Shown: positions 27,776 through 63,441, counted from the first letter of the stretch. The stretch: 64,000 nt of DNA from Bacillota bacterium (GCA_029960955.1 JASBVS010000009.1:22645-86644); one strand, 5' to 3'. Notes: a model not told the origin generated them from the sequence alone. A program made the numbers and translations.

Positions 27776-27779
<4 letters not shown>

Positions 27780-28318: not shown

Positions 28319-28341
28319 TCCTCTCGCCTCCCCCTCGCGGC

Positions 28342-29214: not shown

Positions 29215-29229
29215 ATGCCCTCCCTCCTC

Positions 29230-35683: not shown

Positions 35684-36943
35684 CTACTTCCAGCCCGGCT
35701 TGGGGAAGACGATCTGCCGCGAGGTGGCGACCGCCTCCGGCAGCACCACCTGCGGCGCCCCGCCCTGCCACTGGGCGAGGATGAAAGCTTGCTGCGGCGC
35801 GCCGTCGGCGTCCCAGCTGAGCGGCCCGAGGATGGTCTGCACGGTGTGGCTGTGGAGCCAGTCCGCGATCTTCTCCTGGTCCAGCGAGCCCACCGCCTCC
35901 ACCGCCGCCTGGAGCACCTGCGCGGCGGCGAAGGCGTCGGCCGCGTCCTCCGCCGGCTCCTCGCCGTTGAACATCTGGTGGTAGGTGTCCAGGAACTCCC
36001 TGTTCATCGGGTAGGAGGCGGCGGGGCTCCAGCTGGTGGTGAAGAAGATCCCCTCGGTGTTGGCCACGCCGATGGCGCCCTTGAACTGGTCGGTCTCCGA
36101 GGGCGCCGACGTCTCGAAGAGCACCTTCGGGCTGTAACCCACCTTCTGGAACGAGCGGATGAGGCCGACTCCGTCCGTGAAGACGGCGCCCTCGGCCACG
36201 AGCTCCGCGCCGCTGGCCTTGATCGCCTGGGCGATGGTGTCGAAGTTGGTCGTGTCCGGCGGGTAGATCTGCTTGTAGACCGTCTTCACCCCGCAGGCCT
36301 CCAGCTGCGTCCGGATGCCGTCGATCACCGGCGACGTGAAGGGGTCGTCCTGCGAGGGATAGGCGCCCGTCTTGGGCCGCTGGTCGGCCGGCAGGCCGCA
36401 GACCCAGTGGGCGAAGAGGTCCGCCTGGTGCGGCGCCGTCGCCTGCTGGGCGAAGAAGAGGAAGTGGAAGTGCCGGCTGAACATCTCCGGCGAGCCGCCC
36501 GCCGGCTCGACGTAGACCATGTGCGCCTTCTCCGCCACCGCCGAGGCCGGAAGGTTCAGTTTCGAGGAGAAGGTGCCCAGCAGCAGGTCGACCTTCTCCT
36601 GGCTGATCAGGGCGTTGTAGTCGGCCACGATGGTGTTGACGTCGCTCTGGTCGTCCTTGACCACCAGCTGGACCTGCCGCCCCAGGAGACCCCCGTTGGC
36701 GTTCACGAGTTTCTGCCAGACCTGGTAACCCTTGTGCGCGGCGGTGCCCGGGTCGGAGAAGGAGCCGGTCAGCGGCAGCGAGATGCCGATCCGGATCGGC
36801 GCCTTCGCAGCGGTGTTGCCGCCGCCGCCCCCGGAGGCGGCGGGGGCGCTTCCGGTCTGCCCCCCGCCTCCGCAGGCGGCCAGGAAGAACACCGAGGCCG
36901 CGGCCCCCAGGAGGACCCCACGTCGCCAGAAGCGACCCCGCAT
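35684..36943 (-). CDS. ABC transporter substrate-binding lipoprotein (Leu/Ile/Val-binding protein family)
   Basis: ATG at 36943 with a GGGGGAGG SD. Signal peptide with lipobox LAAC, a Gly-rich linker, then a type I periplasmic binding fold. Confidence 0.85.
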   Translation of the reverse strand: MRGRFWRRGVLLGAAASVFFLAACGGGGQTGSAPAASGGGGGNTAAKAPIRIGISLPLTGSFSDPGTAAHKGYQVWQKLVNANGGLLGRQVQLVVKDDQSDVNTIVADYNALISQEKVDLLLGTFSSKLNLPASAVAEKAHMVYVEPAGGSPEMFSRHFHFLFFAQQATAPHQADLFAHWVCGLPADQRPKTGAYPSQDDPFTSPVIDGIRTQLEACGVKTVYKQIYPPDTTNFDTIAQAIKASGAELVAEGAVFTDGVGLIRSFQKVGYSPKVLFETSAPSETDQFKGAIGVANTEGIFFTTSWSPAASYPMNREFLDTYHQMFNGEEPAEDAADAFAAAQVLQAAVEAVGSLDQEKIADWLHSHTVQTILGPLSWDADGAPQQAFILAQWQGGAPQVVLPEAVATSRQIVFPKPGWK

Positions 36944-37073
36944 CTCTCTCGCCTCCCCCTCTCCCCGACCCTCCCGAGCCGGGGAGATCGTGAATATCCT
37001 ATTCGTTCTGCGCAATTCCCGCGGGCTACACCAGTGCCGCCCCGCCACGGCCGGCGGCCGGGTGCGGGCGCCG

Positions 37074-38099
37074 TCAGCGGCGGGCCAGCAGGCCCGCGCG
37101 TCCCGCCCGCTCCAGCGTCGCCCGCGCCGCCGCCACGATCTCCTCCACCCCCGGAACGACGTAGCGCTCCAGCTCGGGCGCGAAGGGCGTGGGCGCGAAG
37201 CGCGCGCCGACGCGGGCGATCTCCACGTCCACCTCGTCCAGCGCTTCCTCGTAGACGGTCGCCGCGATCTCCGCTCCCATCCCCCCTTGACGGACCGCCT
37301 GATGGGCCACCACCAGCGCCCGCGTCTTCCGGAAGGAAGCCAGGACCGTCTCCCGGTCCCACGGGCTGACGGTGCGCAGGTCGATCACCTCGGCCTCCAC
37401 CCCGTCCTCGCGGGCGAGGCGCTCGGCCGCCTCCAGCGCCATGGCCACCATGGCCCCGTAGGTGACCACCGTGACGTCGCGGCCGGGGCGCTTGACGTCG
37501 GCCTTCCCCAGCGGCGCCACCTCGTCGGCGCCCGGGTCGGGCACCGGCCCGCGGCTGTTGTAGAGCACGTTGGGTTCGAAGAAGACCACCGGGTCGGGAT
37601 CCCGGATGGCCGCCTTGAGGAGCGCCTTCCCGTCCCGCGGGGTGGAGGGGACGACCACCTTCAACCCGGGGACGTGGGCGAACCAGGCTTCCAGGAGCTG
37701 CGAGTGCTGCGGGCCCGCCGAGCGGCCCGGCCCGCCCTGGCAGCGGACGGTCAGCGGAACCGCCACCTGGCCGCCGGACATGTAGCGGATCTTCGCGGCC
37801 TGGCTGACCAGCTGGTCCATGGCGATCTCCAGGAAGTCCACGTACATGACCTCGACCACCGGTCGCGAACCGGTGACGGCCGCCCCCACCCCGGCGCCGA
37901 CGATGGCCGCCTCGGAGATGGGCGCGTTCCGCACCCGGCGCGTGCCGAACCGGGTGGAGAGGCCCAGCGTCACCTTGTAGGAGCCGCCCATGGGATCCTG
38001 GATGTCCTCGCCCAGGAGGAAGACGGACGGATCGCGCTCCATCTCCTCCGCCAGCGCCTCCCGCAGCGCCTCGCGCATCGTCAGCTCGCGCACCGGCAC
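37074..38099 (-). CDS. 2-oxoacid (acetoin/pyruvate/BCKA-type) dehydrogenase E1 component beta subunit
   Basis: 341-aa transketolase-like Pyr and C-terminal domains (LLGEDIQDPMGGSYKVTLGL...). Confidence 0.9.
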   Translation of the reverse strand: MPVRELTMREALREALAEEMERDPSVFLLGEDIQDPMGGSYKVTLGLSTRFGTRRVRNAPISEAAIVGAGVGAAVTGSRPVVEVMYVDFLEIAMDQLVSQAAKIRYMSGGQVAVPLTVRCQGGPGRSAGPQHSQLLEAWFAHVPGLKVVVPSTPRDGKALLKAAIRDPDPVVFFEPNVLYNSRGPVPDPGADEVAPLGKADVKRPGRDVTVVTYGAMVAMALEAAERLAREDGVEAEVIDLRTVSPWDRETVLASFRKTRALVVAHQAVRQGGMGAEIAATVYEEALDEVDVEIARVGARFAPTPFAPELERYVVPGVEEIVAAARATLERAGRAGLLARR

Positions 38100-38138
38100 C
38101 GTCGCCCCCTTCCGCCACCGCTCCGCGCGCGGCCTCCC

Positions 38139-39110
38139 TCAACCGGCGTAGACGTCCTCCAGCGCGCTCTCCGGAGCCGGCCGGCGGCCGCGGGCGCCAG
38201 CCTCGGCGGCCGCCTCGATCTCGGCCTCCACCTCGGCGCGCAGGCGGGCCTCGCCCTCCTCGTCCAGCGCGCCCTGCTCCAGCAGCCAGGCGGCCACCCG
38301 CCGCAGCGGGTCGCGCGCCTTCCAGGAGGCGACTTCCTCGTCGCTCCGGTAGACCGCCGGGTCGCCGATGTAGTGGCCGTACCAGCGGTAGGTGCGGCAC
38401 TCCAGGAGCGTCGGCCCCCCGCCCCGGCGCGCCCGCTCCACCGCCCTCTGCGCCGCCTCCAGGACGGCGAAGAGGTCGTTGCCGTCGACCAGCTCGCCGG
38501 GGATGCCGTAGCCCTGGGCGCGGACGGTCAGGTCCGGCGCCCGGTCCACCGTCCGGTGGGGCGTCGACTCGGCGTACTGGTTGTTCTCGCAGACGAAGAC
38601 GACGGGCAGCTCCCAGATGGCGGCCATGTTGACCCCCTCGTGGAAGGCGCCGGTGGTGACGGCGCCGTCGCCGAAGAAGCAGGCGACCACCCGGTCCGAG
38701 CCGCGGTTCTGCAGCGAGATGCCGGCGCCCGCGGCGATGGGGATGCCGGCCCCGACGATGCCGTTGGCGCCCAGCACGCCGATGGAGAAGTCCATGATGT
38801 GCATGGAGCCGCCCTTGCCGCGGTTGTACCCTTCCTCGCTCCCGTAGAGCTCGAGAAACATGCGCGCCGGGTCGGCGCCCTTGGCCAGGATGTGCCCGTG
38901 CCCGCGGTGCGTGGAGGTGATCAGGTCATCCCGCTCCAGCCAGGCACAGACGCCCACGGGCACCGCCTCCTGGCCCACCGAGGAGTGGAGGAAGCCCGGC
39001 AGCGCCCCCTTCTGGTAGAGCTCCGCCGCCTTCTCCTCGAAGGCGCGGATGCGCACCATCCGCCGGTAGAGCTCGACGATCCAGGCCGGGTCGAAGGCCA
39101 CCCCGCTCAC
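38139..39110 (-). CDS. 2-oxoacid dehydrogenase E1 component alpha subunit (ThDP-binding)
   Basis: ThDP motif GDGA...NN (FFGDGAVTTGAFHEGVNMAAIWELPVVFVCENNQYA). GTG start with GGAAGGGAGG upstream. Confidence 0.9.
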   Translation of the reverse strand: MSGVAFDPAWIVELYRRMVRIRAFEEKAAELYQKGALPGFLHSSVGQEAVPVGVCAWLERDDLITSTHRGHGHILAKGADPARMFLELYGSEEGYNRGKGGSMHIMDFSIGVLGANGIVGAGIPIAAGAGISLQNRGSDRVVACFFGDGAVTTGAFHEGVNMAAIWELPVVFVCENNQYAESTPHRTVDRAPDLTVRAQGYGIPGELVDGNDLFAVLEAAQRAVERARRGGGPTLLECRTYRWYGHYIGDPAVYRSDEEVASWKARDPLRRVAAWLLEQGALDEEGEARLRAEVEAEIEAAAEAGARGRRPAPESALEDVYAG

Positions 39111-39167
39111 GTCCCCTGCCTCCCTTCCGCCGCTACCCGCGCGCCGCCGGCTCCGTGCCGCCGGCTC

Positions 39168-40406
39168 TCAGAAGAGCAGCCAGCCCTCCCGCGACTCCAG
39201 CCGCGCCACCAGCGCGGCCAGGAAGCGCGCCGCCTCGGCGCCGTCCGCCGCCCGGTGGTCGACCGTCAGCGTCAGCGTCGCCACGGGCCGGACCACCACC
39301 TCGCCCCCGCGCACCACCGCCTGCTCCCGCACCGCCCCCACGGCCAGGATGGCCGCCTCCCCCGGGTTGCAGATGGCGCGGAAGGCGTCGACGCCGAACG
39401 GGCCCAGGTTGGAGAGGGTGAAGGTCCCGCCGGACATCGCCTCGGGAGGAAGCCTCCCCGCCCGCGCGGCCTCCACCAGCCGCGCCCGCCGGGAGGCGAT
39501 CTCGCCCAGCGCCAGGCGCTCCGCGTGGTGGAGGACCGGCACCAGCAGGCCGCCCTCCTCCAGGACCGTCGCCAGGCCCACCGCCACCTCGTCGTGGAAG
39601 ACGAGCGCCCCCTCGCCCGGTGCCGCCCCTTCCTCGAAGGTGGCGTTGAGCGCCGGAAACTCGAGGAGGCTCTGCGCCACCGCCTGCACCAGGAAGTCGG
39701 TGAGCGAGAGGCGCAGCGGCCCCTCCCGCCCGCGCTGCCCCGCCAGCGCGCGGCGCAGCTCCAGGATGGCGCCGGCGTCGAAGCTGCGGCTGACCGAGAA
39801 CTGCGGCACGGTCTGCCAGGAGCGGAGCATGCTCCGGGCGACGGCCCGCCGCATACGGGAGAGCTCCAGGCGGCGCCCGCCCGCCACCGGCCCACGACGG
39901 CGGGGCCTCCAGGCAGCACGATCCGCCCGCGGGCCGCTGCCGCGGATGCCGCGCAGGTCGATGCCGCGGCGGCGCGCCTCGCGGCGGACCGCCGGCGAGG
40001 CGCGGACCGCCGCCCTCTCCGGCTCGACCGCGCTCCCGGGCGCCGCGGCCGCGACCGCCCCGCCGTCCGGCGAAGGAAGCCGGCCCGCCGCCACCGGACT
40101 CCCGGGCTCGCCCGGGGCGGCTCGCGGCGCCTCCCGCTCCGGTGCCGGCGGCAGCTCCTCGCCCGCGCCTTCGCTGAAGAGCGCCAAGCTTCGCCCCACG
40201 CGGACGACCTCCCCCGGCCGGACCAGCACCGCCCGCAGGAAGCCGTCCAGCGGCGCCTCCACCTCCATGACCGCCTTGTCGGTCTCGATCTCCGCCACCG
40301 GCTCGCCGCGCCGCACCGGATCGCCCGCCGACTTGAGCCAGCGGAGAAGCCTGCCTTCCTCCATGGTCAGGCCCATGCGCGGCATGGTGAGCGGGACCAC
40401 GGCCAT
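39168..40406 (-). CDS. Dihydrolipoamide acyltransferase (E2 component)
   Basis: N-terminal lipoyl domain (EIETDKAVMEVEAP), E3-binding segment, catalytic domain with DHRAADGAEAARFL. Confidence 0.9.
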   Translation of the reverse strand: MAVVPLTMPRMGLTMEEGRLLRWLKSAGDPVRRGEPVAEIETDKAVMEVEAPLDGFLRAVLVRPGEVVRVGRSLALFSEGAGEELPPAPEREAPRAAPGEPGSPVAAGRLPSPDGGAVAAAAPGSAVEPERAAVRASPAVRREARRRGIDLRGIRGSGPRADRAAWRPRRRGPVAGGRRLELSRMRRAVARSMLRSWQTVPQFSVSRSFDAGAILELRRALAGQRGREGPLRLSLTDFLVQAVAQSLLEFPALNATFEEGAAPGEGALVFHDEVAVGLATVLEEGGLLVPVLHHAERLALGEIASRRARLVEAARAGRLPPEAMSGGTFTLSNLGPFGVDAFRAICNPGEAAILAVGAVREQAVVRGGEVVVRPVATLTLTVDHRAADGAEAARFLAALVARLESREGWLLF

Positions 40407-40421
40407 CCTCCTCGCCTCCCG

Positions 40422-41480
40422 TCAGGCGGCGTCCGGCCGGAGCAGGACGCGGATCGCCCCGTCGCGCCGCTGGACGAAGGTCTCCCAGGCCTCGGCGAAG
40501 CGCCGCAGCGGGAAGCGGTGGGTGACCAGGGGCGCCACGCGGACCCTGCCCGCCGCCATCAGCTCCAGCCCCCGCTCGGAGACGCCGCGCGGGTTGGCCA
40601 CCGAGCCCAGCACGTCCAGGTGGCCCCGCACGATGCGCGGCAGCTCCACGTCGAGCCGCGCGTCGCCGCCGGTCGCCCCCGCCAGCACCACGCGGCCGCC
40701 GCGGCGGACGACGCCGACGGCCAGGCTGGCCGCCTGGGCCGTGCCGGCGAACTCGACGGCGGCGTCCGCCCCGCGCCCGCCCAGCTCGCGCCGCACGGCC
40801 GCCTCGGGGTCGGCTTCCTGGCGGACGTCCACCACCGCGTCGGCGCCCAGCTCGAGGCCCTTGCGCAGCCGGTCGGGGCGCGTGCCCACCAGCACCACCC
40901 GGCCGGCGGTCAGCCGCGCCACCTGGAGGGCGATCAGGCCGATGGCGCCCGGCCCGACCACCGCCACCCGCTCGCCCGGGCGCAGCCCCGCCCGCTCCAC
41001 CGCCCAGAGGGCGACGCCCACGTTGTCCGTGAAGGCGCCCGCCTCGTCGTCGACGCCCTCCGGCAGCCGGTGGAGGCTCCGCTCCGGCACGGCGGCGTAC
41101 TCGGCCAGGCCGCCGGGGATGGTGAAGCCGATGTGGGCGTGCCCCCAGGCGGGATCGCCGTAGTGCTCGCACAGGTTGTAGAGCCCCTCGCGGCAGGGCG
41201 GGCACTGCCCGCAGCCCACGTGCACCTCCACCCCCACCCGGTCGCCGCGCCGGAAGCCGACCACCCCCGGTCCCGTCGCCTCCACCACCCCGGCCCACTC
41301 GTGGCCCGGAACATGGGGATAGCGGACGCCGGCGAAGCGCCCCTCCAGCACCTTCCGGTCGGTGGCGCAGACCATGCTGGCCGTCACGCGGACCAGCACC
41401 TCGCCCGCCCGCGGCTCCGGCACGGGCAGGTCGTCGCGCACCTCGAAGCGTCCCGGTTCGGGGATCCAGACCGCCAGCAC
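40422..41480 (-). CDS. Zn-dependent alcohol dehydrogenase (MDR family, threonine/sorbitol/butanediol-dehydrogenase-like)
   Basis: GHEWAGVV, structural Zn CGQCPPCREGLYNLC, Rossmann VVGPGAIG. Confidence 0.85.
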   Translation of the reverse strand: MLAVWIPEPGRFEVRDDLPVPEPRAGEVLVRVTASMVCATDRKVLEGRFAGVRYPHVPGHEWAGVVEATGPGVVGFRRGDRVGVEVHVGCGQCPPCREGLYNLCEHYGDPAWGHAHIGFTIPGGLAEYAAVPERSLHRLPEGVDDEAGAFTDNVGVALWAVERAGLRPGERVAVVGPGAIGLIALQVARLTAGRVVLVGTRPDRLRKGLELGADAVVDVRQEADPEAAVRRELGGRGADAAVEFAGTAQAASLAVGVVRRGGRVVLAGATGGDARLDVELPRIVRGHLDVLGSVANPRGVSERGLELMAAGRVRVAPLVTHRFPLRRFAEAWETFVQRRDGAIRVLLRPDAA

Positions 41481-41498
41481 GGGTCTCGCCTCGCTCCG

Positions 41499-42587
41499 TC
41501 AGGGGTGGACCAGCACCTTGAGCGCCCCGTCGACGCGCTCCTTGAAGGTCTCGTAGGCGCGCGCGAACTCCTCCAGCGGGAAGTGGTGGGTGATGAGGCT
41601 GGCGACGTCGATGCGGCGGGCGGCCATCAGCGGCAGGACGCGCTCCATGGTGTTCCGGTTGGCCCGCACCCCGCGCAGGTCGATCTCCTCGAGCACGATC
41701 TTCTGCATGGGCAGGGCCACGGCCTCGTGGGGCACGCCGGTGAAGACCACCCTTCCCCCCTTGCGGGTCATCTCCACCGCCTGCCGGATGGAGTCCGCCG
41801 TGCCCGCGCAATCGATGGCGACGTCGACGCCGCCGCCGCTCAGCCGGCGCACCTCCTGGACCGCATCGACCCGGCGGTGGTCGACGACCTTGTCGGCGAA
41901 GGGACGGGAGCGCTCGAGCCGATCGCCCGAGCCGGTGACCAGCACCTGGCCGGCCCCCATCGCCCGCGCGCTCTGGGCGACGAGGATGCCCATGGGGCCG
42001 GCCCCCACCACGGCCACGCGGTCACCCGGGCCGACCCCGCCGCGTTCCGCCGACCAGAGGGCGATGCTGGAGGCGTCCGCCAGCGCCCCCTCGTCGAGGT
42101 CGAGCCCCTCGGGCAGCGGGAAGACGCTCTTCACGGAGTGGACCACATACTCCGCGTAAGCGCCCTGGCTGTAGTGCCCGTACTGGCGGTGGCCCAGCTC
42201 GGGTCGCCCGTAGTTCTCGCAGAGGTTGTAGCGGCCCTCCCTGCACATGCGGCAGTAGCCGCAGCCCGCGTGCGAGGTGCCGGCCACCCGCTGCCCCGGC
42301 CGCCAGCCGAAGGCGGCCGCCAGCTCGCCCGCCGCCACCACCTCGCCCGACCACTCGTGGCCGGGGACGAACGGGTACTCCCGCGGCCACTGGCCGGGGT
42401 GGCGCCCCTCGATGATGTGGACGTCGGTGCCGCAGATGGCCACCGCGTGGACGCGGCAGAGCACCTCGTCCCTCCCGGGCCGGGGCACGGGCAGCTCGCC
42501 GACGTGGAAGCGCTGCGGCCCGTCCAGGATCAGGGCGCGCATCCTCTCCGGCAGTCCCGCCGTCTCCCGCTTCAGTGCCAGGCTCAT
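41499..42587 (-). CDS. Zn-dependent alcohol dehydrogenase (MDR family)
   Basis: GHEWSGEVV, CGYCRMCREGRYNLC, VVGAGPMG. The start may be the internal ATG at 42542 (MRALILDGP). Confidence 0.85.
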   Translation of the reverse strand: MSLALKRETAGLPERMRALILDGPQRFHVGELPVPRPGRDEVLCRVHAVAICGTDVHIIEGRHPGQWPREYPFVPGHEWSGEVVAAGELAAAFGWRPGQRVAGTSHAGCGYCRMCREGRYNLCENYGRPELGHRQYGHYSQGAYAEYVVHSVKSVFPLPEGLDLDEGALADASSIALWSAERGGVGPGDRVAVVGAGPMGILVAQSARAMGAGQVLVTGSGDRLERSRPFADKVVDHRRVDAVQEVRRLSGGGVDVAIDCAGTADSIRQAVEMTRKGGRVVFTGVPHEAVALPMQKIVLEEIDLRGVRANRNTMERVLPLMAARRIDVASLITHHFPLEEFARAYETFKERVDGALKVLVHP

Positions 42588-42629
42588 CGGGCCTCCGTCA
42601 CCCCGTCTCCCGGGTTCGCGCGCGCCGCC

Positions 42630-43400
42630 TCAGTCGTCCAGGAAGGCGACCAGCCTGCAGATGGAGGACTCGCCCCGGAAGAACTTCCAGGGGAAGGCGC
42701 CCACCGTCACCCTCCGGTTGACGATCTGGTCGATGCCGCGACCGATGTTCTCGATCAGCAGGACGTTGCGCGCCGCCGTCCGGCGGTGGCTCTGAAGGAA
42801 GTGCTTCCTGGGCAGCAGCTCCTCGATGGGCCTGCCGAACTTCTGCTCCATCTCCTCGACGAGGTCGGGGCGGTAGTTGCGGATGGCCGTCCAGAGCGGG
42901 TGCTCCACCGAGGGTGCGTCGGCGCCGATCCACGGCGCCTCCACCTCGTCCAGCAGGTAGGTGACCAGGTCCACCGACGGACCCGGGCACTTGCAAAAGT
43001 AGCGCGTCTCGTCGGGCTCCTCGCCCTCCCAGTTGAAGCGGTGCCAGTTGTAGTAGAGGATGACCGCGTCGCCCTTCTGGATGGCGGGCGCCTTGGCGGC
43101 GGCGGCCAGGAACATCTCCCGGTCGACGATGGTGTAGTCGTCGACGAAGGGGCTCAGGTCGACCACCACCGTCGGGCGGTAGAGCCGGTCCAGCGGGATC
43201 TCGTGGACCCACCAGCCCCTGGGGTTGAAGTGCTGCGGCGCGTCGACGTGCGTCCCGGAGTGCATGTTGGTCTCGATGATCTGGCTCTGCAGGCCGTCCC
43301 GGTGGTGGCTGTGGAAGTTGGTCACCTTGGTGCTGGGGAAGTAGGGCCATGTGGGCGTCAGCACGCCCCAGCTCTGCGTCAGGTCGACCAGCCTTGCCAA
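42630..43400 (-). CDS. Cyclase-family protein (kynurenine-formamidase-like fold)
   Basis: Cyclase-family motifs HSGTHVDAPQHF and DLVTYLLDEVE. The likely start is the TTG at 43400 (LARLVDLTQSWGV) with GGAGGAGAG immediately upstream. The ORF-track ATG at 43499 adds a low-complexity tail. Confidence 0.7.
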   Translation of the reverse strand: MARLVDLTQSWGVLTPTWPYFPSTKVTNFHSHHRDGLQSQIIETNMHSGTHVDAPQHFNPRGWWVHEIPLDRLYRPTVVVDLSPFVDDYTIVDREMFLAAAAKAPAIQKGDAVILYYNWHRFNWEGEEPDETRYFCKCPGPSVDLVTYLLDEVEAPWIGADAPSVEHPLWTAIRNYRPDLVEEMEQKFGRPIEELLPRKHFLQSHRRTAARNVLLIENIGRGIDQIVNRRVTVGAFPWKFFRGESSICRLVAFLDD

Positions 43401-43495
43401 CTCTCCTCCCCCCCGACCTTCGCCGGCCGCCCGCCCCCGCCCGCTCCGCCGCGGGAGCCGTTCCCCGGGCGACGGCGGCCGCCCGGGGCGGTTAT

Positions 43496-43518
43496 GCAAT
43501 CGATTGCGGCCTTTGGCC
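43496..43518. promoter_or_regulatory. Perfect 12-bp palindrome GCAATCGATTGC (followed by GGCCTTTGGCC) in the 336-bp intergenic region upstream of the cyclase gene
   Basis: Read directly from the sequence. It shares the 13/14-nt motif ATCGATTGC(A)GGCC with 46210-46223, upstream of the divergent amidohydrolase. Confidence 0.4.
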
Positions 43519-43736
43519 TGCTAGTTCGCCGCCCGGTGCCACATTCCTTCCTGTGGTTTCGGTTTTCAGTGCGGAAACAGGGAGAAGATGGAGGCGGGCG
43601 ACCGCAGCGGCCGGCCGCACCCCTTTCCGGGCGCCTTTGCGGAGGCGGCGCGGGCCGGCCGGGCGGGGCTTGCCGGCGGCCTCCCGACGCCCGGCGGCTC
43701 CGCCCGGGAGGGCCCCGGCTGCAGGAAACGACGGCT

Positions 43737-46097
43737 CTAGCCGCGCCGCGCGGCTTCCGCTTCGTGCGGGCCCGTGCCCGCGCCCTCCCCCGGCGCGCGG
43801 CCGGCCTCCTCCACCCAGGCGCGCACCCGCGCGGGGGTCATGGGGAGGCGCCGGACCACCACGCCCAGAGGCGCCAGCGCGTCCTCCACGGCGTTGGCCA
43901 GAGCAGCCAGCGCCGGGATGGTGCCGCCCTCGCCCGCCCCCTTGGCGCCCAGCGGGTTGAGGGGCGTGGGCGACTCGAGGTGGGAGATCTCCACCGGCGG
44001 CATCTCCTCGGTGGAAGGAAGCGCGTACTCCGCCAGCGTGCTGGTGAGGAGCTGTCCCTGCTCGTCGTAGACCAGCTCCTCCAGCAGCGCGCCGCTGAGG
44101 CCGTACATGACCCCGCCGCGGACCTGTCCCTCCACCAGCGGCGGGTGGATCATCCGCCCGCAGTCGTGTGCGACCACGTAGCGCAGGACACGGACGCCGC
44201 CGGTCTCCGGGTCCACCTCCACCACCGCCACGTGGGCGCCGTCGGCGAAGGTGGGGGCGCCGGGCGCGAAGGCGACGGTGGAGGCGAGGTCGACCAGCGC
44301 CCGGCCCCCTTCCTGCGCCTCGCCCGAGCGCAGGCGCCGCGCCAGTTCCGCCAGCGAGAGCCGCAGGCCCGGCACGCCGCGCACGCGGACGTCGCCCCCC
44401 TCCAGGAGCAGGTCTTCCTCCGCCACCTCCAGGAGGCGGCTGGCGGCCGCCAGGATGCGGCGGCGCAGCTCCACCGCCGCCTCGTGGACCGCGCTGCCGC
44501 CCATGGCCACTCCCCGGCTGCCGAAGGTGCCGATGCCGGCCGGCACCTGCGCGGTGTCGCTGGCGACCACGGTGACGCGCTCCGCATCGACGCCCAGCGC
44601 GTCGGCCGCCACCCGGGCGAAGGTGGTCTCGTGCCCCTGTCCCTGGGCCGGCGAGCCGCTGGCCACCACCACCCGCCCGCTGGGGTCGAGGCGGGCGGTG
44701 GCCGCCTCGAAGGGGCCGCCGCCGGTGTCCTCCACGTAGACGGCCACGCCGACGCCCAGCCAGCGGCCTTCCTGGCGCGCCCGCGCCTGCTCCGCGCGCC
44801 AGCCCGCCACGTCCGCCCTCTCCACCGCCTGGCGGAGCGCCGCCGGGTAGTCGCCCGAGTCGTAGACCACCCGGCCCGGACCGCCCCGGTAGGGGAGGCC
44901 GGTGGCGTAGGGCATCTCTTCGGGCCGGATCAGGTTCCGCTGGCGCAGCTCGACGGGGTCCATCCCCAGCCGCCGCGCCAGCCGGTCCATCATCCGCTCC
45001 ATGACGAAGTTCCCCTGCGGCCGGCCGGCGCCGCGGTAGGGCCCGATGGGCACCTTGTTGGTGAAGACCTCCAGCACGCGGCAGCGGTAGGCCGGCAGAT
45101 GATAGGGCCCCGGCATGGTGGTGGCGGTGACCAGCCCGATGGGGACGCGGGGCGGGAAGGCGCCCACGTCGCTGAGCAGCACGTCGTCCAGGGCGAGGAG
45201 CCGCCCGTCCCGGCGGGCCGCCAGGCGGACCCGGTGGATCTGCTCGCGCTCGTGGTTGGTGGAGAGGAAGTGCTCCCGGCGATCCTCCAGGAAGCGGACC
45301 GGCCTCCCCGTCTCCAGCGCGAGCCAGGCGGCCAGCAGGTCCTCGGGGTAGACGCCGTTCTTCACCCCGAAGCCGCCCCCCACGTCGGGCGTCACCACGC
45401 GCACCTGCCGCTCCTCCAGCCCCAGCGCCGCGGCCAGCGCCGCGCGCAGCTGGTGCGGCGCCTGGTGCGCCGCCCAGACGGTCAGCCCGCCGCCCGCCTC
45501 GGGCACCGCCAGGATCGCCCTGCCCTCCAGCGGCTGCGCCGTCGCCCGCCCGATGGCCAGCTCCTCCTCCACCACCACCTCGGCCTCGGCCAGGGCGGCC
45601 TCCACCTCGCCGTAGCCGACGGTCCGCTCCGAGCAGAGGTTGGAGGGGCGCGAGAGCAGCGCGGGCGGCGCCCCTTCCTCCAGCGCCCGCCGCGCGTCGC
45701 CCACCACGGGCAGCGGCTCGTACTCCACCTCCGCCTCCTCCAGCGCGTCCTCGGCCACGTAGCGGTCGCGGGCCAGCACCGCCGCCAGAGGCTGGCCCGC
45801 GTAGGCCACCTCCTCCACGGCCAGGGCGGGCTGGACCGTCGCCCGCTGGAGCGCCGGCGCCCGCCGCGCCAGGCGCCGCCCGTCCAGCGCCAGCGCCACC
45901 CCCGCCACGGCCTCGGCGCGCCCCAGATCCACCCGCCGCACCCGCGCGTGGGCGTACGGGCTGCGCAGCACCGCCAGCGCCAGCGTGCCGGGCACCTCCA
46001 GGTCGCCGACGAAGCGGCCGCGCCCCGTCAGCAGGCGCCGGTCCTCCCTGCGCGGCAGGCCGTCGCCCGACCCGGTCGCCTCCCGCTCGCTCCGCAT
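43737..46097 (-). CDS. Xanthine-dehydrogenase-family molybdopterin-binding large subunit (form-II CoxL-like) with no adjacent FeS or FAD subunits
   Basis: ATG at 46097 with a [14 protein letters not shown]-terminus RREDRRLLTGRGRFVGDL, Mo-binding loop PYRGAGR, GQGHETTFA and the C-terminal dimerisation region. 786 aa. The 1072-aa ORF-track version is over-extended. Confidence 0.85.
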   Translation of the reverse strand: MRSEREATGSGDGLPRREDRRLLTGRGRFVGDLEVPGTLALAVLRSPYAHARVRRVDLGRAEAVAGVALALDGRRLARRAPALQRATVQPALAVEEVAYAGQPLAAVLARDRYVAEDALEEAEVEYEPLPVVGDARRALEEGAPPALLSRPSNLCSERTVGYGEVEAALAEAEVVVEEELAIGRATAQPLEGRAILAVPEAGGGLTVWAAHQAPHQLRAALAAALGLEERQVRVVTPDVGGGFGVKNGVYPEDLLAAWLALETGRPVRFLEDRREHFLSTNHEREQIHRVRLAARRDGRLLALDDVLLSDVGAFPPRVPIGLVTATTMPGPYHLPAYRCRVLEVFTNKVPIGPYRGAGRPQGNFVMERMMDRLARRLGMDPVELRQRNLIRPEEMPYATGLPYRGGPGRVVYDSGDYPAALRQAVERADVAGWRAEQARARQEGRWLGVGVAVYVEDTGGGPFEAATARLDPSGRVVVASGSPAQGQGHETTFARVAADALGVDAERVTVVASDTAQVPAGIGTFGSRGVAMGGSAVHEAAVELRRRILAAASRLLEVAEEDLLLEGGDVRVRGVPGLRLSLAELARRLRSGEAQEGGRALVDLASTVAFAPGAPTFADGAHVAVVEVDPETGGVRVLRYVVAHDCGRMIHPPLVEGQVRGGVMYGLSGALLEELVYDEQGQLLTSTLAEYALPSTEEMPPVEISHLESPTPLNPLGAKGAGEGGTIPALAALANAVEDALAPLGVVVRRLPMTPARVRAWVEEAGRAPGEGAGTGPHEAEAARRG

Positions 46098-46209
46098 GCG
46101 CTCCCCTCCCCTGTCGCCTTCGCTTCGACTCGCCTTCCCGGCGGCCTCGTGGCCAGCCAATACCACGGCCGCCGCCCGCTCCCCTGCCGCCGGGCCGGCG
46201 GCGAAGGAG

Positions 46210-46223
46210 ATCGATTGCAGGCC
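46210..46223. promoter_or_regulatory. Second copy of the ATCGATTGC(A)GGCC motif, in the divergent promoter / TIR of the amidohydrolase-2 gene
   Basis: ATCGATTGCAGGCC, preceded by GAAGGAG. It lies 22-35 nt upstream of the ATG at 46245. Confidence 0.3.
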
Positions 46224-46244
46224 GCCGAAGGGGGCGCGGGAGGG

Positions 46245-47219
46245 ATGGGCTTGGTCGTCGACGTGCACGCCCACCACGTGCCTCCGGCGCTGCTGGAACG
46301 GGTGGCCGCGGGGGAGGTGGCCGCGGAGGTCGAGCTCCACCGCGCAGGAGAGGCGGTCCGGCTCCTCTTTCCGCGCTCGGCCACCCGCCCCTTCCCGCCG
46401 GCCATGACCGACCTGGAGGCGCGGCTGGCCCATATGGACGCCCTGGGGATCGACCTCCAGCTCCTCTCCTTCTGGGCGGAGGCCTACGGCTACGACCTGC
46501 CGCGCGAGGCGTCGCTCCGCTACCACGCCGCCGCCAACGAGGAGCTGGCGCGGGCGGCCGCCCGCCGCCCCGACCGCTTCCGCTGGATGGCCACGGTGCC
46601 GCTGCCCTGGGGCGAGGAGGCGGCGCGGGAGGCGGAGCGGGCTGCCGGGCTGGGCGCGGTGGGCGTCATGGTGGGCACGCAGGCCGACGGCCGCGAGCTG
46701 GACGCGCCGGAGCTGGCGCCCTTCTGGGACGCCGCCGAGGCCCTGCAGCTGCCGGTGATGATCCACCCGGCGCTGGGCCAGGCGCCGCGGCTGGGCCGCT
46801 ACTACCTGAACAACCTCCTGGGCAACCCTTTCGAGACGACCGTGGCGGCCTCCGCGCTGGTGCTGGGCGGGGTGCTGGAGCGCCACCGGCGGCTCCGCCT
46901 CCTCCTCGTCCACGGCGGCGGCTACTTCCTCCTGGCCAGCGGCCGCCTCGACCACGGCTGGCGGGTACGCGCCGAGACGCGCACCGTGGCCGAGCCGCCT
47001 TCGGCCTTCCTGGAGCGCTTCGCCTACGACACGATCCTCTACGACGACCGGCTGCTGGCGGCGCTGGCGGCGCGGGTGGGCAGCGGGCGGCTCCTCCTGG
47101 GCACCGACTACCCCTTCGACATGGAGCCGCCCGAGCCGGTCGCCCAGATCCGCCGCCTCTTCGGTCCGGCGGCGCGCCAGGTGCTGGAGGAGAACGCGAG
47201 GAAGCTCTTCCGCCTCTGA
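46245..47219 (+). CDS. Amidohydrolase-2 family protein (ACMSD-like metal-dependent hydrolase/decarboxylase)
   Basis: N-terminus MGLVVDVHAHHVPP (the metal-binding HxH of the PF04909 family) and the C-terminal GTDYPFD motif. Alternative in-frame TTG starts at 46215 (GAAGGAG SD 5 nt upstream) or 46251. It is the real C-terminal piece of a 3495-aa artefact ORF. Confidence 0.8.
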   Translation: MGLVVDVHAHHVPPALLERVAAGEVAAEVELHRAGEAVRLLFPRSATRPFPPAMTDLEARLAHMDALGIDLQLLSFWAEAYGYDLPREASLRYHAAANEELARAAARRPDRFRWMATVPLPWGEEAAREAERAAGLGAVGVMVGTQADGRELDAPELAPFWDAAEALQLPVMIHPALGQAPRLGRYYLNNLLGNPFETTVAASALVLGGVLERHRRLRLLLVHGGGYFLLASGRLDHGWRVRAETRTVAEPPSAFLERFAYDTILYDDRLLAALAARVGSGRLLLGTDYPFDMEPPEPVAQIRRLFGPAARQVLEENARKLFRL

Positions 47220-47262
47220 CCCCCGCCCCCGGGCGGCGGGACGGCGGCGCCCGGCATTCCCC

Positions 47263-48333
47263 TCAGCCGCGCGCGCCCAGCCGCTCCGCCAGCCAGTCGG
47301 CCATCTGCGGGCGGTGGCGGTAGGGGATGTTGTTGCAGACGTGGTTCCCCTCCTCGAAGAGCCAGAGCTCCTTTGGCCCGCGGGCTTCCTGGTGGAGCCG
47401 GACCGCCTCCTCCCAGGGGATGAGGCGGTCGCGCCGGCCGTGGATGACCAGCAGGGGGATGCGGATCTCCGCCGCCGCGTCGCGCAGCGTGATCCGCCGG
47501 GCGAGCTCCCGCCCTTCCTCCAGCGTGGAGGCGCCCTGGCGGATCGCGTACGCCCAGCGGGTCAGCTCGCTCAGCCCGTCCCAGTGCGAGGCGACGTCGT
47601 AGCCGCCGCCCAGCACCACCGCGGCCGCCAATCCCGGGGCGAAGGCGGCCGCCCGCGCCGCGAAGAAGCCGCCCAGGCTGACGCCCATCACCCCCACGCG
47701 GCGGCCGTCGAGGTCCTGGCGCTGCGCCAGCCACCGGAGGACGGCGGTCGCCACCCGCTCGTAGCGCGGCTCGATGGGGTGCTCCCACTCCGCCTCGCCC
47801 TGCCCCGGCCCGTCCACGGCCAGCGCGGCCACGCCGCGGGCGACCAGGTCGCGGGCGTAGGCGGTCAGCTCCTCCTTGACCGAGTCGAGGCCGGGGAAGA
47901 GGAGGACCACGGGCGGCCGGGGAAGGCCGGGTGGCCGGTGGAGGAGGGCGGCCAGCCTCCATCCCTCGTACGGGATCTCCACCCGCTCCGCGGGCGGGTC
48001 GAGCCAGGGCGCCGCCCTCAGGAAGTCGGCCACCGTCCGCTCGTGCGCCGCGCGCTGCTCCTCGCGCCGGTGGACGAAGAGAAACTTGCCGAAGTGGTGG
48101 TAGAGCGAGGCGCGGAACCAGAGCTGGCCGGCGGTCCGCCAGCGCCCCGCCCGCTCCGCCTCCTCGGCCAGGCGCTCCACCTCGCCCGCCGCCCCGCTCC
48201 ACGCCCGGCACCAGTCGTCCCAGCTCTCGACCGATCCGGCGATGCGGCGGAAGTCCTCGGGGTCCACGCCGTTGGCGACGAAGCGCGGCCCCCAGTTGGC
48301 GACGGCCGTCTCCACCCGTCCGTCCCGCGCCAC
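47263..48333 (-). CDS. Alpha/beta-hydrolase fold protein (dienelactone-hydrolase / C-C-hydrolase-like)
   Basis: Nucleophile elbow GVSLGG. 356 aa with a helical N-terminal cap. Confidence 0.7.
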   Translation of the reverse strand: MARDGRVETAVANWGPRFVANGVDPEDFRRIAGSVESWDDWCRAWSGAAGEVERLAEEAERAGRWRTAGQLWFRASLYHHFGKFLFVHRREEQRAAHERTVADFLRAAPWLDPPAERVEIPYEGWRLAALLHRPPGLPRPPVVLLFPGLDSVKEELTAYARDLVARGVAALAVDGPGQGEAEWEHPIEPRYERVATAVLRWLAQRQDLDGRRVGVMGVSLGGFFAARAAAFAPGLAAAVVLGGGYDVASHWDGLSELTRWAYAIRQGASTLEEGRELARRITLRDAAAEIRIPLLVIHGRRDRLIPWEEAVRLHQEARGPKELWLFEEGNHVCNNIPYRHRPQMADWLAERLGARG

Positions 48334-48432
48334 CCGCTCCCCCTCCTCTGTGCAATCGGTTGCGAGCCTGGCGCTGGCTCTTCGCCTTCGCCCGCTCCGC
48401 CTCCTGCCGGTTCCCTGCGGGAGGCGGGCCGC

Positions 48433-49122
48433 TCACGCGTGCGGGACGCCGTACCTCGTCCGCAGGAGCGCGGCGCACCACTCGGTGTTGAAGGCGAGCG
48501 AGCTCTCCAGAACCCGCAGCCGCGACGGCCCGCCCTCGACGGCGGGGAAGAGCGGCTGCGCCGGGTCGTCGGGGAGTCCCAGCCGCGCGCGCAGCTCCAG
48601 GTAGCGCGCCAGCTCTCCGCGGGCGCCCGCCAGCGCGTGCAGCAGCGCCGGATCGGAGGCGTCGGCGAGGCGGAGCGAAGCCGCTTCCTGCTCGTCGAAA
48701 CCGGCGGCGGCGAGCGCGCGCAGGAGCGCCCCCCGGCGGCGGAGGAGGGCCTTGCGCAGGAAGAGCCGGCGCAGCTCCTCCAGGGAGCCCTCCGTCTCCC
48801 CGGGGAAGGCGGCGTCGAAGCCGCCGCCCGCCGCCAGCGCGCGGTTGATCTCCTCGGAGAAGGCGTGGTCGACCAGCTCCACCTCCACCCGCTCCACGCC
48901 CGGGAGGGGGCGCAGGGCTCCGACGACGTCGGAGGCCATGAGGAAGGCGAAGTTGGGCGCGCACCAGAAGGTGGGCAGGCGGAGGCGGATGCGGATCCGG
49001 CCGTCCTCCACCGCCGCTTCCTGGATGAAGCCGAGCTCGACGAGCGGTTCGTCGAGCTCGGGGTCGCGGACGGTCGCCAACGCCCGCCGGACCGCCTCCG
49101 CGTCGACCGTCGCCCGCGTCAC
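48433..49122 (-). CDS. DUF59 (MIP18/FeS-assembly-like) domain protein
   Basis: N-terminal VRRALATVRDPELDEPLVELGFI matches the DUF59 fold. The C-terminal half is uncharacterised. Confidence 0.55.
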   Translation of the reverse strand: MTRATVDAEAVRRALATVRDPELDEPLVELGFIQEAAVEDGRIRIRLRLPTFWCAPNFAFLMASDVVGALRPLPGVERVEVELVDHAFSEEINRALAAGGGFDAAFPGETEGSLEELRRLFLRKALLRRRGALLRALAAAGFDEQEAASLRLADASDPALLHALAGARGELARYLELRARLGLPDDPAQPLFPAVEGGPSRLRVLESSLAFNTEWCAALLRTRYGVPHA

Positions 49123-49125
49123 GGC

Positions 49126-50169
49126 CTACGCCTCCCCCTCCGCCCCGTCCGCGCCGCGCCTCCGGCCGGGGAGGGCGCTGCGCCCCGCGGCGAAGTCGAG
49201 GTCGTAGAGGCGGGCGGCATTCTGTCCCAGGATCTTCCTCTTGACGGCCAGATCGAGGGTGACGCCGGTCTCCTCGACGATCGCCTCGGGCAGCTGGAAG
49301 GCCATGAAGGCGTCGAGAATCCACCTCGGTTCCCAGATCGCGTAGTCCGAGGCGAAGAGCAGGCGGTCGGGCCCGAGCCAGAAGAGCAGCTCCGCCATCA
49401 CCCGGGCGAAGTAGAGCGGCCGGGCGCGGACGAAGGGCATGGCCACCGCCAGGCCGCCGTAGACGTTGGGCTCCTGGGTGGCGATCCAGCAGAAGTCCTC
49501 CAGTCGCGGCAGCCCGACGTGCTCCACGATGAAGTTGAGTTCGGGGAAGTCGCTGGCCGCATGGTCGACGTCGGCCACGTCGAAGGCATCGCGGTCGAGC
49601 GGCCAGATGGTCGGCCCCTTGTGAACGTGGATGTTGCGGATGCCGAGCTCCCGGCACTTCTCCAGGTAGCGGTAGGCCCACGCGTCGGTCAGCTTGTAGC
49701 CGCGCGAGCTGCCCCGCCACTCGGCGGTGTAGAGCTTGACGCCCCGGATGCCGTACCGCTCCTTCGCCGCCTCCAGCGCCTCCAGCCCCGCCTCGCCGTC
49801 GCGCGGGTCGAAGCTGCCGTTGAGGATGAAGCGATCCGGGTAGAGCTCCTTGATCACCGCGTTCCGCTCGACGGTGTTGAAGCCGCGGACGAAGAAGTCG
49901 CGCAGCCTGGTGGGCTGGAGGATCGCGACGTCGACGCAGCCCTCGGCGAAGAGGTCGCGCGCCATGGTCTCGGCGTCGTACTCGAGGAACTTCTCGCGCG
50001 GCCAGATGCGCTCGGCCGGGCTGAGGTTGCGGTGGTAGTCGTAGAAGCAGTCGATGAAACCCTTCCCGTACCTGTTGGCCTGGTTGGCGGGACTCGCGTC
50101 CCAGAAGTGGACGTGGCCGTCGACGACGAAGATCTCCTCACCCTCCGCGGTCCGGTACATGCTCTCCAC
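49126..50169 (-). CDS. Amidohydrolase-2 family protein (second copy)
   Basis: VVDGHVHFW (HxH), plus the conserved metal ligands HVHKG and DHAAS and the distal SDYAIWEP motif. ATG with a GGGGGGTGGAGAG SD. Confidence 0.8.
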   Translation of the reverse strand: MESMYRTAEGEEIFVVDGHVHFWDASPANQANRYGKGFIDCFYDYHRNLSPAERIWPREKFLEYDAETMARDLFAEGCVDVAILQPTRLRDFFVRGFNTVERNAVIKELYPDRFILNGSFDPRDGEAGLEALEAAKERYGIRGVKLYTAEWRGSSRGYKLTDAWAYRYLEKCRELGIRNIHVHKGPTIWPLDRDAFDVADVDHAASDFPELNFIVEHVGLPRLEDFCWIATQEPNVYGGLAVAMPFVRARPLYFARVMAELLFWLGPDRLLFASDYAIWEPRWILDAFMAFQLPEAIVEETGVTLDLAVKRKILGQNAARLYDLDFAAGRSALPGRRRGADGAEGEA

Positions 50170-58630: not shown

Positions 58631-58661
58631 GCTCAAGCCCCCCTTCCTCGCCTCCAGAGCT

Positions 58662-59933: not shown

Positions 59934-59953
59934 GGACGACTCCTCCCGTCGGC

Positions 59954-60976: not shown

Positions 60977-60996
60977 CTCGCCGACCTCCCGTCTCC

Positions 60997-61596: not shown

Positions 61597-61601
61597 GCAC
61601 C

Positions 61602-62474: not shown

Positions 62475-62598
62475 CGCTCACCGCCTCCCGGCCCGCTGCT
62501 CGCGCGCCCGCAGCCTATGCGGCGGGGGCGGGGGCCGTGAGCGGAAAGCTCTCCGGGCCTCGTCCGGAAAGCGGACGGGCCGGGCAGGGGTTCCGCGC

Positions 62599-63339: not shown

Positions 63340-63441
63340 GGACTCCCCTCCCTGCTCCGTTCGGCCCTGCCAACCGATCATGCTAACAGAGAGCGGGGGC
63401 GCGCGTCAGGGCGCGTCCCCGCTCTCCGCGACCTTCCCGGG

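Follow-up and report, generated by a model that had tools for sequence, protein, structure and literature searches.

A form II-like molybdopterin large subunit without adjacent partner genes in a composite locus of a Bacillota genome

Genes at the locus

The window analysed here is a 64 kb stretch of a contig of about 121 kb, and the search for partner genes in this genome covers this window. It comes from a Bacillota genome of thermophile-like character. At its GC content of 74 % many long open reading frames are spurious, and genes were therefore called from third-position GC. Between 42.6 and 50.2 kb the genes fall into three or more transcription units, with both strands in use, and the six genes that a sequence-only reading had named there were all found (Table 1). 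An Rfam scan of the whole window returned zero matches, with no Moco riboswitch.

Table 1. Features of the window discussed in the text
Feature	Position	Strand	Evidence
Complete form I CO-dehydrogenase cluster, coxM-coxS-coxL-coxG-xdhC	23849-29232	-	Pfam
CoxS (2Fe-2S subunit)	27776-28384	-	Pfam, tblastn
CoxM (FAD subunit)	28342-29232	-	Pfam, tblastn
Two Zn-alcohol dehydrogenases (ADH) with E2, E1-alpha and E1-beta of acetoin/2-oxoacid-dehydrogenase type	37074-42587	-	Pfam, translations, sister-locus Pfam
Cyclase-family metal hydrolase, 256 aa	42630-43400	-	PF04199, 107.7 bits
Partnerless XDH/CoxL-family molybdopterin large subunit (Mo subunit), 786 aa	43737-46097	-	Three Pfam domains
Divergent intergenic region, Mo gene/ACMSD-like gene, 147 bp	46098-46244		Gene coordinates
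ACMSD-subfamily Amidohydro_2 protein, 324 aa	46245-47219	+	PF04909; divergent from Mo gene
FrsA-like alpha/beta hydrolase, 356 aa, GVSLG nucleophile elbow	47263-48333	-	Pfam, motif
DUF59 (FeS_assembly_P) protein, 229 aa	48433-49122	-	PF01883
Amidohydro_2 protein, highly conserved, uncharacterised, 347 aa (AH2_49k)	49126-50169	-	PF04909

The Mo subunit matches PF01315, PF02738 and PF20256, each far above the Pfam cutoff, and consists of an a/b-hammerhead domain and two Moco-binding domains. Its active-site loop, NKVPIGPYRGAGRPQGNF, has a PYRGAGR core. In an alignment with CoxL, QorL and Kdh, its Moco-contact motifs and catalytic Glu (GAKGAGEGG) match theirs. The domains and the alignment bear out the family and the loop assigned from the sequence alone. 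The protein starts with MRSEREA, and GGAGGGGAG lies upstream. A fused N-terminal domain, contained in a listed open reading frame of 1072 aa, was considered and rejected: the 286 upstream codons show neither a coding signal nor a Pfam domain, and the protein of the sister genome has 777 aa.

With form II CoxL-like subunits the protein shares the three-domain architecture, a YRGAGR-type loop, the catalytic Glu and the Moco motifs. The form II motif is quoted as AYRGAGR (PMC13079737), from which the loop differs by a single substitution, Pro for Ala at the first position. Two further differences are that the Mo subunit has no adjacent small or medium subunit genes and falls below every curated equivalog cutoff. 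It reaches 515 bits on TIGR02416, the model for form I CoxL, against a cutoff of 991, while the CoxL of the window's cox cluster reaches 1252; on the XdhA, PucD and XdhB models it scores 271-394 bits against cutoffs of 780-916. The best of these sub-threshold NCBIfam matches is to a CO-dehydrogenase model. Identity to the window's CoxL is 38 %, and the Mo subunit has no AYxCSFR copper-binding loop. The protein is about equidistant from the solved structures of CoxL, quinoline 2-oxidoreductase QorL and 6-hydroxypseudooxynicotine dehydrogenase, with approximately 510-520 bits to each. It appears form II-like, as first proposed, and is neither a CO dehydrogenase nor a bona fide xanthine dehydrogenase.

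The absence of neighbouring 2Fe-2S and FAD-subunit genes was confirmed. When the window's CoxS and CoxM were used as tblastn queries, exactly one copy of each was found in the 64 kb, and a Pfam search of nearly all called genes of the 64 kb gave no other Fer2_2 or FAD_binding_5 domain. The stretch without partner genes extends for about 14.5 kb on one side of the Mo gene and 18 kb on the other, so that the gene is not part of an operon cut by the edge of the window. The CoxS and CoxM genes noted earlier at a distance of about 15 kb are present, and belong to a true form I cox cluster, which is a candidate donor of partners for the Mo subunit.

The Mo reading frame is unbroken both in the window and in the 88 % sister genome, with a dN/dS of 0.225 at a dS of 0.38 between the two, inside the range of neighbouring genes (0.11-0.33). 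Columns conserved in at least 90 % of S-adjacent homologs were taken as near-invariant (n = 130), and 123 of these (94.6 %) are kept by the Mo subunit; all seven changes are conservative. Relative to partner-linked homologs there is neither an extra domain nor a large insertion. By these sequence measures the gene is not decaying but selectively maintained, and its product looks functional. Since it looks functional, it needs either partners in trans or another mode of action, an alternative which the sequence-only reading had already posed and which is upheld.

Lone large subunits among relatives

The subunit complement of the locus had been called unusual. However, the orphan state recurs in the family: CoxS is missing within the 5-10 kb flanks at 7 of 56 well-flanked reference loci, or about 1 in 8. 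It is common to the window and its sister, and lone large subunits are also found in three related Bacillota MAGs (loci L006, L007 and L130) at 52-55 % identity. The most distant of these, L130 (52 %), retains a nearby E1/E2/ADH cluster, with E1 subunits 73-78 % identical to those of the window, about 3 kb from the orphan large subunit; neither a cyclase nor an amidohydrolase occurs at this locus. In L006 the orphan is followed by a flavin-reductase-like gene.

Where partners are encoded, they need not adjoin the large subunit. Small and medium subunit genes lie 0.3-6 kb from it in 24 of the 56 loci, and in L016 ABC-transporter genes stand between them. In 15 loci one small and one medium subunit gene are shared by two full-length large subunit genes. 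The window's CoxS shares 45-69 % identity with the small subunits encoded beside relatives. The closest partner-linked homologs, according to a simple neighbour-joining tree without support values, belong to Thermaerobacter operons of the order M-S-L beside uvrB, which hold neither an amidohydrolase nor a cyclase. As lone large subunits are common and two large subunit genes can share one pair of partners, supply of partners in trans is the most likely mechanism. A literature search on orphan coxL or large subunit genes returned mostly irrelevant matches.

Neighbouring modules and catabolic comparisons

The divergently transcribed protein at 46 kb matches human and Pseudomonas ACMSD with E values of about 2e-40 in a PDB search and carries the metal motifs HxH (HAH, residue 8) and DYP (residue 288); it is probably a metal-dependent decarboxylase or hydratase. 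The intergenic region that separates it from the Mo gene contains no Rfam family and no sigma-70 consensus site, the latter as expected at 74 % GC. Two ACMSD-like proteins had been proposed at the locus. This stands for the protein at 46 kb, but not for AH2_49k, whose only PDB match is weak and is to an uncharacterised structure, 3irs.

In L012, L013, L015, L016, L017, L022, L040, L067 and L093 a homolog of the ACMSD-like protein, 40-43 % identical, precedes a Mo large subunit gene at a distance of 9-171 bp. This adjacency is seen in Methylomirabilota, Limnocylindria, Thermoleophilaceae and one metagenome contig, and the pairs have NMT1-type ABC transporters, isochorismatase, amidase and a PnrA-type binding protein as neighbours. 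Of the neighbouring gene products, the ACMSD-like protein has the best support as a functional partner for the Mo subunit. Viewed from the amidohydrolase side the link is confirmed in part only: the nearest relatives, at 48-52 % identity (L088-L090 and L096), have no Mo subunit nearby and instead adjoin CoA-transferases, a transporter and an aminotransferase. In the sister genome an insertion element directly upstream of the Mo gene cuts the ACMSD-like gene. As the Mo gene there is intact, the pairing is not obligatory.

The cyclase belongs to a family of kynurenine formamidase/isatin hydrolase type, whose metal motif HxGTHxDxPxH it carries as HSGTHVDAPQH, and has a TTG start after GGAGGAG. 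It does not reach the arylformamidase equivalog (33 bits against 223). With 42 bp to the start of the alcohol dehydrogenase gene and 336 nt to the Mo stop codon, it stands at the head of the downstream ADH-ADH-E2-E1 operon, which is aco-like. It is also a possible partner of the Mo subunit, although its recurrence beside Mo genes is less tight than that of the ACMSD-like protein. Homologs occur in Mo-enzyme clusters of Thermaerobacter litoralis (41 % identity) and Caldinitratiruptor microaerophilus (35 %), where the large subunits are 47-48 % identical to the Mo subunit, and at 29-33 % identity in L018 and L015. The T. litoralis and C. microaerophilus clusters hold M-S-L genes together and, in addition, a nucleobase permease, AllF/AllG, carbamate kinase and PucR; no gene of this additional set is found near the Mo gene of the window. 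Nothing useful was found in the literature on cyclase-family partners of Mo hydroxylases.

The three genes from 47.2 to 50.2 kb fall outside the Mo unit. The alpha/beta hydrolase is the last gene of an operon separate from the Mo gene, and in the sister it stands beside DoxX without the two genes that precede it in the window. AH2_49k has homologs of 65-75 % identity across phyla. Its pairing with DUF59 is repeated at 67-72 % identity in L133 and L134. Hydrogenibacillus has the pair, as does an Acetobacteraceae genome, where it follows a di-iron monooxygenase operon; the pair is absent from the sister genome. In published prm/mim clusters a propane/acetone monooxygenase is followed by an amidohydrolase, an unknown protein, an alcohol dehydrogenase and GroEL (PMC6849523). 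The adjacency of AH2_49k and DUF59 agrees with this order, and a 67 % homolog lies between a monooxygenase coupling protein and GroEL/MimR. Unlike the prm/mim clusters, the window has an alpha/beta hydrolase in place of the alcohol dehydrogenase after the pair and no di-iron monooxygenase or GroEL-like gene: Pfam gave no Phenol_Hydrox, MmoB or Cpn60 match in the window, and the Zn-alcohol dehydrogenases are about 6.5 kb from the pair. DUF59 is paired with AH2_49k, not with the Mo enzyme, and the two are of the Prm/Mim-associated type already described.

A resemblance to nicotinate, picolinate or quinoline degradation clusters had been suggested for the locus. The recurrence elsewhere of ACMSD-like/Mo and cyclase/Mo pairs lends some support to a link with N-heterocycles, and a nitrogen heterocycle would be a plausible class of substrate for the Mo subunit. 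The other genes that define such pathways are, however, absent: among the called genes of the window Pfam found no ring-cleavage dioxygenase, hydroxylating monooxygenase or pathway regulator, nor the 3-hydroxyanthranilate dioxygenase and semialdehyde dehydrogenase of a kynurenine or 2-nitrobenzoate context.

PicC of the picolinate pathway is a member of the amidohydrolase-2 family, and the window likewise pairs a Mo hydroxylase subunit with an amidohydrolase-2 protein, a likeness at family level. In the pic cluster of Alcaligenes faecalis, the Mo dehydrogenase PicA1A2A3 acts before the decarboxylase PicC, and experiments have shown that all three dehydrogenase subunits are required (10.1101/530550). 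There, unlike in the window, the PicA subunits are encoded together and are accompanied by the monooxygenase PicB, a 2,5-dihydroxypyridine dioxygenase and downstream pic genes; beyond a large subunit and a protein of the amidohydrolase-2 family, nothing of the picA1A2A3-picB-picC-picD set is present in the window. The Methylomirabilota operons of the order M-S-(transporter)-AH2-L-L2, such as L016, are similar in that the amidohydrolase (41-43 % identical) directly adjoins a large subunit (46-48 %). They differ in that all their genes lie on one strand and include those for small and medium subunits, an NMT1-type ABC transporter and a second large subunit in tandem. The lumazine pathway, in which a Mo dehydrogenase works alongside an amidohydrolase-2 isomerase, was weighed as a model and rejected; the two paralogous amidohydrolase subunits, GTP-binding chaperone and prFMN decarboxylase it requires are all absent here.

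Proposed partner supply in trans and its alternatives

The proposed explanation, to which an even chance is assigned, is that the Mo subunit is a working catalytic subunit, from an uncharacterised form II CoxL-like branch of the xanthine-dehydrogenase family, that takes its small and medium subunits from genes at another place and probably acts on a nitrogen heterocycle or related aromatic acid. Its gene would have become separated from those of the 2Fe-2S and FAD subunits, and the protein would assemble either with CoxS and CoxM of the cox operon 15 kb away or with a pair encoded outside the window. It would hydroxylate its substrate, probably a nitrogen heterocycle or related aromatic acid, and the two substrate electrons would pass from it through the borrowed small and medium subunits. 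The hydroxylated product would then be decarboxylated or hydrated by the ACMSD-like enzyme, and the cyclase-family hydrolase may serve to open a bond of amide or lactam type. For the Mo subunit we infer assembly in trans, the identity of the partners and the class of substrate alike.

A partnerless large subunit is usually taken in annotation for an incomplete enzyme, whereas here a lone subunit is conserved under selection. Together with the relatives that stand alone and the operons in which two large subunits share one pair of partners, this suggests that partners are routinely shared within the family. Such sharing would have consequences for the deduction of metabolic capacity, CO oxidation included, from metagenomes. 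It may tentatively be suggested, as a somewhat doubtful extension, that the large subunits of this branch are swappable catalytic modules on a shared platform of small and medium subunits (here CoxM and CoxS) or, in an extreme version, have no 2Fe-2S or FAD partner at all. If true, either the swappable-module or the partner-free reading would alter the way in which genomes are interpreted for the subunit make-up of Mo hydroxylases.

That the Mo subunit does act without a 2Fe-2S or FAD subunit, whether with Moco alone or through an unconventional redox partner, is improbable. Streptomyces lumazine-type clusters have been reported with an MPT-binding subunit only (PMC12391406), and several independent orphans have no small or medium subunit gene in their flanks, one being followed by the flavin-reductase-like gene mentioned above. 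Nevertheless, at conserved positions and in domain content nothing sets the orphan apart from partner-linked homologs, no candidate alternative redox protein is conserved beside the orphans, and the PicA subunits are all essential. We know of no enzyme of the XDH/CODH family that consists of a large subunit only.

There is also little probability that the Mo gene is the stranded remnant of a broken operon, expressed or not, with no catalytic role for want of partners. The region is rearrangement-prone, as the insertion element that cut the neighbouring amidohydrolase in the sister shows, and close relatives lie in intact M-S-L operons. The intact frame in two genomes, the low dN/dS and the retention of near-invariant residues argue against such a remnant, as does the persistence of the orphan state, with conserved neighbouring genes, down to 52 % identity in L130.

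The sequence-only reading had treated the stretch from 42.6 to 50.2 kb as one catabolic island, its six genes serving a single pathway with nicotinate, picolinate, quinoline or some comparable compound as substrate. All six are of hydrolase or oxidoreductase types seen in such pathways, and the picolinate pathway does join a Mo dehydrogenase to an amidohydrolase-2 decarboxylase. This reading is nonetheless very unlikely, given the division into transcription units on both strands, the packing of the cyclase with the alcohol dehydrogenase operon, the lack of pathway-defining genes and the occurrence of the L130 orphan without cyclase or amidohydrolase. In addition, AH2_49k and DUF59 are a separate pair, widely conserved by themselves, tied to di-iron monooxygenase/ADH clusters rather than Mo enzymes and missing from the sister. 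The supposed island is a composite of three unrelated gene modules and, as lone large subunits recur in relatives, the case is a fairly ordinary one. At the level of the locus the gain is modest: the division into three modules and the naming of one enzyme pair, the Mo subunit and the ACMSD-like decarboxylase.

Least credible of all is that the Mo subunit is an alternative second catalytic subunit of the form I CO dehydrogenase, oxidising CO or a related small molecule: the complete cox cluster on the same contig, with the sole small and medium subunits visible in the window, and the best sub-threshold NCBIfam match would fit this, but form II-type proteins are not generally regarded as CO oxidisers, and the missing copper-binding loop, the TIGR02416 score and the 38 % identity to the window's CoxL all speak against it.

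Gene map of the region

Because the window has a G+C content of about 74%, mechanical ORF lists are crowded with long spurious frames. One spans the whole region, and another comes from a first-ATG/GTG rule that overextends the Mo gene by 286 codons. Genes were called by third-position GC in sliding windows, followed by Pfam confirmation. The coordinates given in the sequence-only reading are correct, as are the length and PYRGAGR loop that it assigned to the molybdopterin large subunit.

Features of the window and of homologous loci in other genomes (L numbers); L, M and S in the contents denote large (Mo), medium (FAD) and small (2Fe-2S) subunits
Feature	Coordinates	Strand	Contents or remarks
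Cluster with family III CoA-transferase	373-9889		Zn-ADH, TPP enzyme, 2-hydroxyacid dehydrogenase, MmyB-like regulator, enoyl-CoA hydratase, family III CoA-transferase, GntR regulator, MFS transporter
XdhC-type gene and two-component genes	22058-25021
coxM-coxS-coxL-coxG-xdhC	23849-29232		complete cluster; source of the window's one S/M set
Spurious 3495-aa ORF	36732-47219	+
Cyclase-family protein	42630-43400	-	256 aa; TTG start preceded by GGAGGAG ribosome-binding site
Mo-cyclase spacer	43401-43736		336 nt
Molybdopterin large subunit (Mo gene)	43737-46097	-	786 aa
Spurious 1072-aa ORF	43737-46955	-
Amidohydro_2 protein (ACMSD-like)	46245-47219	+	divergent from Mo gene, 147 bp between
FrsA-like alpha/beta hydrolase	47263-48333	-
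Amidohydrolase-DUF59 pair	48433-50169		L133 6001-7910; L134 6001-7862
DUF59 protein	48433-49122	-
Second Amidohydro_2 protein	49126-50169	-
Sporulation-type operon	57734-63387		dapB, DpaA-like dehydrogenase, DpaB-like flavoprotein, asd, aspartokinase, dapA
Insertion element, L001	7380-9208		ACMSD-like gene fragments at 6932-7330 and 9280-9816
Two-L operon, L016	4373-14646
L131 (Thermaerobacter litoralis)	6417-18153		M-S-L, xanthine/uracil permease, cyclase, AllF/AllG(/AllH), carbamate kinase, PucR
L132 (Caldinitratiruptor microaerophilus)	6128-16549		as L131

The lone large subunit and its partners

Within the window, the Mo subunit is indeed without neighbouring 2Fe-2S and FAD genes. When CoxS and CoxM of the window serve as tblastn queries, a single copy of each is found, and the Pfam annotation of the window holds no Fer2_2 or FAD_binding_5 protein beyond the cox set. 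The CoxL of that set is a true form I enzyme (TIGR02416, 1252 bits against a cutoff of 991). In the same cluster, the XdhC-type maturation protein has a YHS (metal-binding) domain at its C-terminus; a GAF histidine kinase and a LuxR-type response regulator are encoded directly downstream.

The lone subunit is 38% identical to this CoxL and reaches no curated equivalog cutoff. It comes nearest with an aerobic-CODH model (709 against 950) and with glyceraldehyde dehydrogenase alpha (594 against 790); the xanthine dehydrogenase models are far under cutoff. Among solved structures, Mycobacterium CoxL, 6-hydroxypseudooxynicotine dehydrogenase and quinoline 2-oxidoreductase are about equally similar to it, and it has a hydroxylase/form II active-site loop instead of the copper-binding AYxCSFR one.

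Judged by its sequence, the gene appears to be alive, three tests being in agreement. Compared with its 88% identical sister in another Bacillota MAG, dN/dS is 0.225 at a dS of 0.38, with values of 0.11-0.33 for eight neighbouring genes. GTFGSRG, one further motif and the catalytic glutamate align with solved enzymes. Across 41 homologs whose small-subunit gene is adjacent, 130 alignment columns show conservation of at least 90%; the orphan retains 123 of these (94.6%; mean of linked homologs, 95.9%), and all seven differences are conservative. Neither an extra domain nor a large insertion is present in it.

The subunit complement, first taken to be unusual, is not exceptional, as lone large subunits recur in this family. 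The sister gene is likewise an orphan, and further Bacillota homologs at 52-55% identity (L006, L007 and L130) stand alone in unrelated contexts; homologs at 54-55% in Thermaerobacter-type MAGs lie in ordinary M-S-L operons beside uvrB. At L130, E1 subunits 73-78% identical to those of the window, together with E2 and ADH genes, are found about 3 kb from the lone gene, which suggests that the latter has long been settled in this chromosomal neighbourhood. In a reference-genome scan, 56 loci had flanks of 5 kb or more in both directions; among these, a small-subunit gene was adjacent in 25, 0.3-6 kb away in 24 and nowhere in reach in seven. Fifteen loci hold two full-length large-subunit genes with one S and one M gene, suggesting that one electron-transfer pair is routinely shared by two catalytic subunits in those operons. 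By these counts, S/M pairs that serve more than one L, or that lie apart from it, are common designs. The two-L operons (L016, L012, L040, L031, L034-L036, L038, L039, L042, L044, L045, L049, L062 and L076) occur in Methylomirabilota and Dehalococcoidia, their L genes being 43-46% identical to each other's clade.

Small subunits beside relatives of the Mo gene share 45-69% identity with CoxS of the window, and picolinate dehydrogenase required all three subunits for activity (10.1101/530550). Given these observations and the frequent sharing or separation of S and M, the most economical mechanism would be assembly of the lone subunit with partners made elsewhere, the candidates being CoxM and CoxS, at a distance of 15 kb, or a pair encoded beyond the window.

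Neighbours of the Mo gene

The best case for belonging to the Mo gene is that of the ACMSD-like amidohydrolase. Its product matches ACMSD structures at E ~2e-40, with the HxH and Asp metal ligands present. In six Methylomirabilota loci, and also in Limnocylindria, Thermoleophilaceae and one metagenome contig, a homolog of this amidohydrolase (40-43% identity) is found 9-171 bp upstream of a homologous large subunit. The L016 operon runs M, S, NMT1-type binding protein, ABC ATPase, permease, amidohydrolase, L, L2 and second binding protein. Two such pairs are without S or M in reach: L067, with isochorismatase, amidase and a PnrA-type binding protein as neighbours, and L093, with a second amidohydrolase, aldehyde dehydrogenase and a TPP enzyme. 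This link does not hold throughout: the amidohydrolases most closely related to it (48-52%) are without a Mo gene in the vicinity, the nearest M-S-L relatives of the Mo gene are without the amidohydrolase, and the sister copy, on one contig, has been lost to insertion of a resolvase and TnpB element directly upstream of the Mo gene. At this locus (L001, GCA_023511835.1), a serine-resolvase and OrfB/TnpB (IS607-type) element sits inside the ACMSD-like gene, and the gene fragments directly precede an intact Mo gene. At L096, family III CoA-transferases, a family also represented at 373-9889 in the window, flank the ACMSD-like protein's closest homolog.

Since the window contains a sporulation-type operon, the organism probably makes dipicolinate, an N-heterocyclic dicarboxylate; this operon and the Mo-hydroxylase/decarboxylase pair are about 12 kb apart.

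Whether the cyclase is a partner is ambiguous. Its counterparts in T. litoralis (41% identity) and C. microaerophilus (35%) are cyclase-family genes in M-S-L clusters with a nucleobase permease, AllF/AllG, carbamate kinase and PucR, and in Chloroflexi and other phyla M-S-L operons have more distant paralogs at their flanks. These two clusters (L131 and L132) look like a purine or ureide pathway that includes a cyclase-family protein without an assigned step. A gap of 336 nt separates the window cyclase from the Mo stop, and one of only 42 bp separates it from the leading gene of a Zn-ADH pair; the two Zn-ADH genes run on into an operon of E2-E1alpha-E1beta and a Liv-type ABC transporter. The spacer has a terminator-like site on the opposite strand only. 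Amid the very GC-rich region it contains a locally AT-richer stretch, CTGTTTCCGCACTGAAAACCGAAACCACAGGAAGGAATGTGGCA, which may be a promoter or operator of the cyclase-ADH operon.

The second amidohydrolase and DUF59 protein are outside the Mo module. The former is 65-75% identical to proteins of Bacillota, Binatia, Actinobacteria and Alphaproteobacteria. A Zn-ADH comes after the pair in Hydrogenibacillus, and one Acetobacteraceae genome has the pair placed between a soluble di-iron monooxygenase coupling protein and GroEL/MimR. Acetone-grown cells are rich in the amidohydrolase-like protein (PMC7176365). In the sister genome the pair is absent, DoxX being directly followed by the alpha/beta hydrolase. 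The proposal of a single catabolic island fails, as does that of an exceptional complement; what stands is an apparently functional Mo hydroxylase subunit without neighbouring partner genes, for which a link to N-heterocycles is plausible. The amidohydrolase-DUF59 pair, 65-75% identical across distant phyla, has been described only downstream of propane/acetone monooxygenases, as genes without a name. It may have a role apart from the monooxygenase, because the pairs of the window and of Hydrogenibacillus occur without one.
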